From positions 11,656,001 through 11,720,000 of the forward strand of contig OZ024763.1 of the NCBI GenBank assembly GCA_964016885.1: a DNA stretch of 64,000 nucleotides, in the 5' to 3' direction. The stretch comes from Eledone cirrhosa (Eukaryota). A model generated the notes under the pieces. The model was not told the DNA's origin and ran no database searches. It worked only from the letters and a program-made list of their open reading frames with translations. Each line of letters starts with the position of its first letter. Position 1 is the first letter of the stretch. This document shows, piece after piece, positions 21,651 through 22,331 of this stretch. The position numbers and the translations under genes are program-made.

Positions 21651-22139
21651 TAAGTAGTTGGATTTTCAAAGCACTAGTGGCACATATCATCATCATCATC
21701 ATCGTTTAACGTCCATCTCCCAAGCTAGCATGGGTTGGATGGGTTTGTCCCACTTGAGGCAAGATTAGTCAGGTGACCGTGTCTCGCTCGTACAGAACTG
21801 TTTCTGGCCAGTTTTCTACGGCTGGATGCCCTTCCTAACACCAACCACATTTACAGTGTGGACTAAGAGCCCTTTTACTGTCTCCTACATGACCACTTTA
21901 CAGTGTGGACTGGGTGCTTTTTATCGTGTCACCTTCACATATAGCATCTGGATGGTGTCCTCTTGGCCTTGGACAAGAGGCTCCAATTTAGATAATAGGT
22001 GATATTTTTGTGATGGAGGTCCCAAATATGGCTAGACAGTGTTGTCACATTTAGCCAGGCCGGCTCTCTAAATGAATATTGATATATATATATATTTTTT
22101 TTTTTTTTAGTTATGTAATAAACAACATAAGATAGTTAT

Positions 22140-22201
22140 TTCATTTACCAGTGGTTTCTTGAAGGCAGATATTTATATCTGTCTTCAGTCGTCAGAATGA
22201 A
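22140..22201 (-). ncRNA. Type-I hammerhead ribozyme motif
   Basis: Minus strand: TTCATT-CTGACGA-cTGAAGaCAGATAT aa ATATCTGcCTTCAa-GAAA-CCACTGG-TA^-AATGAA. Confidence 0.75.
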
Positions 22202-22276
22202 TAAATAACATGGTGTATTTATTAAATATGGATTTATGTAGAGCACTCTTTTTTCCTGTACCTTTCCGACGGAAAT

Positions 22277-22331
<55 letters not shown>

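Follow-up and report, generated by a model that had tools for sequence, protein, structure and literature searches.

Short repeats that carry a type I hammerhead ribozyme motif recur in a 64,000-nt stretch of the Eledone cirrhosa genome (contig OZ024763.1), hereafter the window, and the question they raise is what kind of element left them there. A preliminary description of one of these repeats had proposed an ORF-less element of approximately 170 bp and a candidate non-autonomous, retrozyme-like family. Our analysis indicates that the copies probably derive from a Penelope-like retroelement with an endonuclease, as its 3' ends (pseudo-LTRs) truncated on the 5' side, and that they are likely genomic debris of a known kind, not a new family of retrozymes. 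The features of the four copies, named A to D, are collected in Table 1.

Table 1. Features of the hammerhead copies and of the neighbouring GIY-YIG frame, in window coordinates.
Feature	Positions	Strand	Basis or remarks
Copy A, hammerhead arm	22108..22237	-	5'-truncated near 22237; (T)n/(TA)n run marks the 3' end; no tail on this side
Copy A, type I hammerhead	22146..22200	-	CUGACGA core 22195-22189; stem II 22188-22159, C.A at base, one internal A.C
Copy A, hammerhead, 3' part	GAAA 22158-22155	-	stem III ACCA-C-UGGU, a palindrome; cleavage predicted at 22146, after GUA; fold and core search
Copy A, inverted tail fragment, 5'-truncated, about 45 nt (the block of the preliminary description)	22239..22283	+	91-93% identity to tails of C and D over 45 nt
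(TA)n and T run at arm end of A, probable target	22082..22107		sequence
(TA)n run at tail end of A, probable target	22281..22318		sequence
Copy B, hammerhead arm	44357..44487	+	C3 44402, H17 44449; terminates in (TA)n, no tail
Copy B, 10-nt inverted match to last tail bases, beside (TA)n	44347..44356	-	exact match to 47528-47537
Copy C, hammerhead arm, left of head-to-head pair	47240..47336	-	C3 47324, H17 47278; 5' end about 11 nt upstream of core
Copy C, tail of about 70 nt, same sense as arm, terminates in (TA)n, two hairpins	47168..47238	-	fold
Copy D, decayed hammerhead arm, right of pair	47336..47432	+	C3 47346
Copy D, tail, same sense as arm, terminates in (TA)n	47468..47538	+	(TA)21 between arm and tail; 95.8% identity to tail of C over 71 nt
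3' end of GIY-YIG endonuclease ORF, other family	28984..29373	-	Pfam PF01541, E 2.6e-5, 24.8 bits against a cut-off of 22.6

The family has four type I hammerhead motifs in the window, with cores at 22195(-) in copy A, 44402(+) in copy B, 47324(-) in copy C and 47346(+) in the decayed copy D. The first three had been placed at 22140, 44395 and 47271 and said to share stem I; we confirm that they have the stem I core and GAAACCACTGGTA in common, and each carries the full set of core nucleotides (CUGANGA, GAAA, UH) in a three-helix junction. The reported variation at N7 is likewise present, with C in copy A and T in the other copies. Two features had been overlooked, namely copy D, which lies head to head with copy C, and a third copy of the recurrent block at 47220-47176(-). 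Copy D lacks U16.1, has a deletion in stem III and shows GGA in place of the GUA triplet. The arm of copy A is 80-83% identical to the other three, which are 91-96% identical among themselves.

In the window, 10 motifs satisfy a strict type I descriptor, whereas 100 local dinucleotide shuffles gave 0.1 on average (maximum 1). Copies B and C are two of the ten, and copy A fails the descriptor because of the C.A apposition at the base of its stem II. Local scans of copies A and B with the Rfam hammerhead models gave no match at E values up to 10, and the matches listed from an Rfam scan of the entire window (150 of 361) are all microRNA-type hairpins below the gathering score. The minimum-energy fold of the 129-nt arm of copy A is a hammerhead with a long, bulged stem I (-19.5 kcal/mol, z -2.46, equalled by 3 of 200 shuffles); its ensemble is diffuse and the opposite strand gives the same z. 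The fold of the copy B arm is not significant (z -1.25). The stem III palindrome is suited to pairing between two molecules, with a self-duplex energy of -8.2 kcal/mol and no stable monomer hairpin.

The G10.1-C11.1 pair is absent at the base of helix II, where copy A has C.A and copies B, C and D have U-A. In the reads aligned to copy A, C remains the majority letter at 22188. Possibly this base is the one that stays unpaired behind A9, in which case a U-A pair would close the helix, still without G-C. Because the usual G-C closing pair of stem II is absent, the predicted cleavage is uncertain, raising the question of whether these ribozymes still cleave.

The compensatory changes in stem II noted earlier are real but few. 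Of the 10 stem II pairs in the four-copy alignment, 2 differ at both partners (G-C versus A-U), 2 differ at a single partner and 3 contain a broken cell; stems I and III show no covariation. With four sequences and one lineage split, the stem II covariation score is reached by 27 of 500 shuffles. All of the compensatory changes separate A from B, C and D, and therefore count as one event, a single subfamily split. Variation among the reads points in a similar direction: at least 26 of the 129 arm positions vary, N7 and the base that follows A9 among them, and the variable sites listed include none of the 11 core positions. Calculated on those listed sites, a core free of variable positions has a chance of 0.07 when the arm is considered and of 0.03 for the 64-nt motif. 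Some of the listed variants break pairs, for example at 22177 and 22198. The proposal that the source elements were selected on RNA structure thus draws some weak support from two compensatory pairs and from read variation that spares the core while affecting N7 and the position after A9, and selection on the source RNA is plausible.

The same observations bear on a reading in which these repeats are fold-back DNA, their hairpins homogenised by template switching and the ribozyme core a relic or a coincidence that was never active as RNA. Covariation that falls short of significance, strands that fold equally well, the lack of an Rfam match and a stem II base without its G-C pair would all fit such a history. 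It is, however, extremely improbable, given that every core nucleotide occupies its correct place in the three-way junction, that ten descriptor matches occur where 0.1 is expected, and that N7 and the position after A9 vary and the core does not.

We then compared the copies in their extent. BLAST with copy A recovers three further arms in the window and the block in two further copies, and the recurrence of this block at 22239 and 47486 agrees with the preliminary description. In C and D the ribozyme is followed downstream by the block in the same sense; in A the block is upstream and inverted, so that the last 45 nt of the tail precede the arm in opposite orientation. The 5' ends of A, B, C and D fall approximately 42, 45, 11 and 10 nt upstream of the core. 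In contrast to these, two 3' ends are fixed: the arm end (TAACTA) and the tail end, about 70 nt beyond. The tail is optional, arm ends with and without it being found both in the window and in contigs. Copies are single or head to head, with no tandem copy in the window. An inverted, 5'-truncated partner accompanies A (the inverted tail) and C/D (an inverted pair with opposite-strand cores 22 nt apart); the inverted match beside copy B is only suggestive of such a partner because it is short (10 nt).

Of the six copy ends, five touch a run of at least (TA)5 and one lies 14 nt off, across a T run, in an AT-rich window that has 218 such runs and 16% of its length within 20 nt of one. The tail at 47168-47245(-) folds into two hairpins (z -2.89, equalled by 2 of 200 shuffles), which make it a candidate protein-binding or priming signal. 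The longest Met-initiated stretches in the three insertions are 24, 27 and 51 amino acids; the element is thus ORF-less as claimed, for these copies. A 25-nt motif of the family has no match in metagenome, viral or prokaryote contigs.

The inverted arrangement of copy A raises doubt as to whether its length of approximately 170 bp is that of a unit. Four runs were aligned to copy A at 80% likeness: X1 (1776 contigs) and X7 (2705 RAD reads) from one related organism, and X5 (9 contigs) and X6 (3 contigs) under two other labels. The organism of X1 and X7 shares only 0.25 of the query words, and RAD reads are a reduced representation that covers few loci unevenly; in addition, contigs are fragmented, and divergence can mimic truncation. 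Within X7, at least 772 of the 2705 reads (summed over the joints listed) connect the arm end (22104-22111) to the block (22235-22250) on opposite strands. Contigs show the same joint of arm end and tail, with 9 cases in X1, 2 in X5 and 1 in X6. The loose ends of contigs comprise 21 in which the arm end is followed by (TA)n, 17 in which it is followed by the tail and 46 in which the tail end is followed by (TA)n.

Conversely, none of the reads or contigs listed spans the junction of copy A. Position 22237 is covered by 8 X7 reads, none of which has the letter of the window, versus approximately 1560 on the block. Depth drops stepwise upstream of the core, from 485 (22188-22194) through 444, 352, 225, 212 and 200 to 145 (22230-22236) and 8 (22237), and this drop may partly reflect subfamily divergence. 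Upstream of 22235, 128 reads continue with an agreement of 0.6. The proposed element of approximately 170 bp is therefore a one-off inversion joint between an arm and a tail fragment, whose junction at about 22237-22238 is not amplified in the reads, and its apparent unit length is misleading.

Several further leads from these alignments were rejected. Read ends pile up at 22136 and 22274, and we considered them as RNA cleavage; the run is DNA, and both sites become AATT with common variant letters, which we interpret as a restriction cut. Truncation at the ribozyme cut site was suggested by a drop in contig depth across 22146 and by one X5 contig ending at 22145, but raw-read depth is flat there (approximately 1110 versus 1060). 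Contig depth is not a valid measure of copy number and was set aside as such. The block itself was considered as a second ribozyme, for which Rfam gave no support, and as RT-coding sequence, where the overlapping frame has no relevant Pfam match. The word AGCACTC was dropped as a family marker: AGCA[CT]TC has 24 matches, in unrelated repeats and in either orientation relative to the hammerheads.

These data also bear on the retrozyme-like label. Animal retrozymes are defined as tandem repeats (PMC7229834; bioRxiv 10.64898/2026.07.22.740005), and a non-LTR retrozyme origin would mean that a monomer of approximately 170 nt was freed by hammerhead cleavage of tandem transcripts, circularised and reinserted. 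The copies resemble the non-LTR retrozymes described by Cervera and de la Pena (2020, PMC7229834) and Li et al. (2026) in being non-coding and of low GC, in their type I hammerhead and in a probable Penelope-like origin; the absence of an ORF and a size near the described range of 150-450 nt (PMC7229834) add to the likeness, and solo monomers of retrozyme families have been described (bioRxiv 10.64898/2026.07.22.740005). Retrozymes as described, however, are head-to-tail arrays whose monomers each bear a ribozyme, and their expression takes circular form (PMC7229834), whereas the copies here are single or inverted, have ragged 5' ends and are known only as DNA. There is no tandem in the window and no head-to-tail joint among the 15 joints listed; tails run into (TA)n where another monomer would be expected, copy A alone has the 170-nt junction, and copy ends lie off the GUA cleavage site, across which RAD depth is flat at 22146. 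Two defining retrozyme features, tandem monomers and a 150-450-nt monomer bounded by cleavage sites, are thus absent from these copies. With its varied 5' ends, private junction, lack of tandems and tails running into (TA)n, the family lends the label no support, and we consider a retrozyme origin very improbable.

The shape of the copies is that of known Penelope-like insertions. Endonuclease-bearing members of this group are described as showing 5' truncation, an inverted truncated copy, a one-sided tail of 30-40 bp and a bias toward (TA)n (Craig et al., 2021, PMC8557442), with insertion into (TA)n known for Neptune, Hydra and Naiad (PMC8557442). We consider a Penelope-like source likely because the copies share a hammerhead arm with an optional tail of about 70 nt, ends in (TA)n and inverted pairs, and because unrelated hammerhead families in the window show the same layout, one of them after the end of a GIY-YIG ORF. 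Out of six Penelope-like features, five are present (5' truncation, inverted partner, optional tail, palindromic helix III and (TA)n), the sixth being a link to an ORF. Truncation of a longer coding element, which the preliminary description had given as the outcome that would count against it, fits the data best, although the coding parent was not found: in the window, no coding sequence lies beside A, B or C/D by tblastn, nor by Pfam on 137 of 326 complex frames, which gave no RT or GIY-YIG match.

Among the unrelated families, an inverted tail or inverted pair occurs in that at 6502, 56218, 59632 and 59760 and in that at 28156 and 28279. In the former, 59632(-) and 59760(+) are inverted partners (167 nt, 99%) with a one-sided tail, and the tail of this family stands inverted upstream in 6502(+), as in copy A. 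In the latter, 28156(-) and 28279(+) form a perfect inverted pair of 259 nt, and the hammerhead at 28795(-), a relative, lies 189 nt downstream of the stop codon of the GIY-YIG frame (Table 1). This frame has a CX4CxxC motif ahead of the domain, common to the frame and its one database match, P0001 (41% identity), the sole match among 85 candidates in a homologue search of longer proteins. Pfam finds no RT or GIY-YIG match on P0001, and tblastn with the GIY-YIG fragment gives no second copy within the window. A CX4CxxC linker before a C-terminal GIY-YIG domain fits Neptune-type elements (PMC8557442), whereas Naiads are described with an N-terminal endonuclease and without canonical hammerheads (PMC8557442).

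From known Penelope-like biology, we propose how such copies could arise. The GIY-YIG endonuclease of the element would nick both strands of a (TA)n target. The reverse transcriptase would start at one of two internal RNA sites, at the arm end or at the tail end about 70 nt further, and stop early, after which a head-to-head joint would unite the two short cDNAs. Copy A would accordingly consist of a 130-nt arm-start product and a 45-nt tail-start product, copy B of an arm and perhaps 10 nt of tail, and copies C/D of two tail-start products. In tandem transcripts of the parent, the ribozyme, residing in the pseudo-LTR, would cut after GUA, likely as a dimer through the palindromic stem III (dimer cleavage by hammerheads is reviewed in PMC6765202). 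The single and inverted fragments are likely inert. The copies themselves document the anatomy and orientation, the optional tail, the varied 5' ends and the (TA)n flanks, whereas we infer the coding parent, the priming scheme and any cleavage.

The two-site scheme has a parallel in PAc, a Poseidon element of Anolis carolinensis, for which both strands are cut and extended and two internal start sites bound the tail (Frangieh et al., 2024, PMC11167929). The likeness extends to two alternative 3' ends separated by the tail, AT-rich targets and products on both strands (PMC11167929). The start site of PAc is an AC-rich stem-loop lacking homology with its target (PMC11167929), whereas the first site here is TA-rich and could anneal to the target. 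The PAc ribozyme overlaps the start of the ORF and is dispensable for insertion in vitro (PMC11167929); the hammerheads here are known from copies without an ORF. With its two alternative 3' ends and tail of about 70 nt, the family provides a natural case beyond Poseidon in which to test the two-start-site model.

Insertions of elements with a C-terminal endonuclease (Neptune, Nematis, Hydra and Penelope/Poseidon) share with the copies strong 5' truncation, an inverted truncated partner, a tail at one end, (TA)n and a hammerhead near the 3' end (PMC8557442). Unlike them, the family here has a tail of about 70 nt, as against 30-40 (PMC8557442), and is known only from non-coding copies. The minimal hammerheads of metazoan Penelope-like elements are described as occurring mostly alone or paired on opposite strands, which is ascribed to truncation of the elements (Cervera and de la Pena, 2014, PMC4209133), and as having low in vitro activity and a highly conserved G10.1-C11.1 pair (PMC4209133). 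Our copies resemble them in the full catalytic core, the long helix II and the short palindromic helix III suited to dimers, as well as in occurring as single copies or opposite-strand pairs and in forming sequence families with compensatory changes (PMC4209133). They differ from those described there (PMC4209133) in lacking G10.1-C11.1 (Y.A and then U-A at the base of helix II), in a helix II of 10-13 bp, in the long bulged helix I predicted for A and B and in the spacing of the C/D cores, only 22 nt. The longer tail and the absent G10.1-C11.1 pair count against a Penelope-like source, as do the failure to link coding sequence in the window to this family and the GIY-YIG fragment belonging to a different family.

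The shortness of the copies may have another source. A short non-coding master RNA, non-autonomous and SINE-like, could have borrowed a Penelope-like protein and inserted in the same way with no ORF-bearing parent. This would agree with the very small size of the four copies and of most sister fragments, with a halving of depth, from 444 to 225, over the 7-20 nt before the core on its upstream side and with the lack of any ORF linked to the family within the window; non-autonomous Penelope-like families exist, such as MRC1 of Chlamys (PMC8557442). Such a master is nevertheless at odds with 5' ends that vary among copies and with the 128 reads that run upstream of the junction of A. In addition, a sister family in the window runs into the GIY-YIG ORF, and strong truncation is described as normal in coding elements (PMC8557442). 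We regard such an RNA as possible but unlikely. Its more specific form, a very abundant non-coding family of approximately 200-300 nt that parasitises a (TA)n-targeting Penelope-like protein through its structured 70-nt tail and whose hammerhead cleaves as a dimer without G10.1-C11.1, is more doubtful still; if true, such a family would stand midway between retrozymes and the pseudo-LTRs of Penelope, dispersed and not in tandem.

Returning to the truncated ends of a Penelope-like element, the most suitable annotation for short ORF-less hammerhead repeats in this (TA)n-rich animal genome is that of insertion stubs of Penelope type. In Octopus vulgaris, 31 recently active Penelope-like families are reported (PMC13282606), and the main text of that paper contains neither "hammerhead" nor "ribozyme". 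The literature searched yielded no study of hammerheads in repeats of octopus or other cephalopods, the matches being PMC8557442 and a paper on twister. The family may already be catalogued in the supplements of papers or in Repbase/Dfam.

The window holds further hammerhead repeats. The region 27959-29373 comprises the end of the GIY-YIG ORF, the hammerhead at 28795(-) and then nested inverted repeats that include the 259-nt palindrome with its hammerheads at 28156(-) and 28279(+); a more distant relative lies at 14299(-). The second family, at 6386-6700, 56161-56272, 56609-56671 and 59446-59866, has a long stem I, a one-sided tail of approximately 100 nt and an inverted pair. A tandem array at 3134-3522(-) consists of 79-bp units (4.8 copies, 76% matches, 158-bp dimer period), each with a hammerhead-like core (exact CTGATGA in 3 of 5), a stem II of 4-5 bp, GAAACA and only about 3 bp of stem I. 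This array failed the strict descriptor and is closer to the tandem definition of a non-LTR retrozyme than copies A-D.

Hammerhead or hammerhead-like motifs also lie beside (TA)n at 7972(-), 11674(-)/11698(-), 8187(-) and 16158(-); the pair at 11698/11674 reflects a 24-nt internal duplication of the core, and those at 8187 and 16158 have a very long stem II. A short repeat family with CTGATGA and GAAACAG cores, which failed the descriptor, occurs at 14410(-), 27916(-), 56791(-), 17353-17408 and 43404-43497, the last being an inverted pair truncated within the motif.

Outside the hammerhead families, a LINE-type fragment at 53960-55523(+) contains an RVT_1 match (54249-54773, E 1.9e-20), and translations suggest further LINE-type fragments at 5852-6298(-), 1048-1614(+) and 45210-45533(+). 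A low-complexity frame at 34018-34821(+) ends in a stretch whose best matches are AUTS2-like and fibrosin-like atlas clusters (score 0.86, a lead only); should this frame form exon 1 of a gene of that type, its intron may contain copies B, C and D. Finally, positions 22536-25150 are occupied by approximately 2.6 kb of CAC/CAA-type triplet repeats, the orientation of which flips near 23055.
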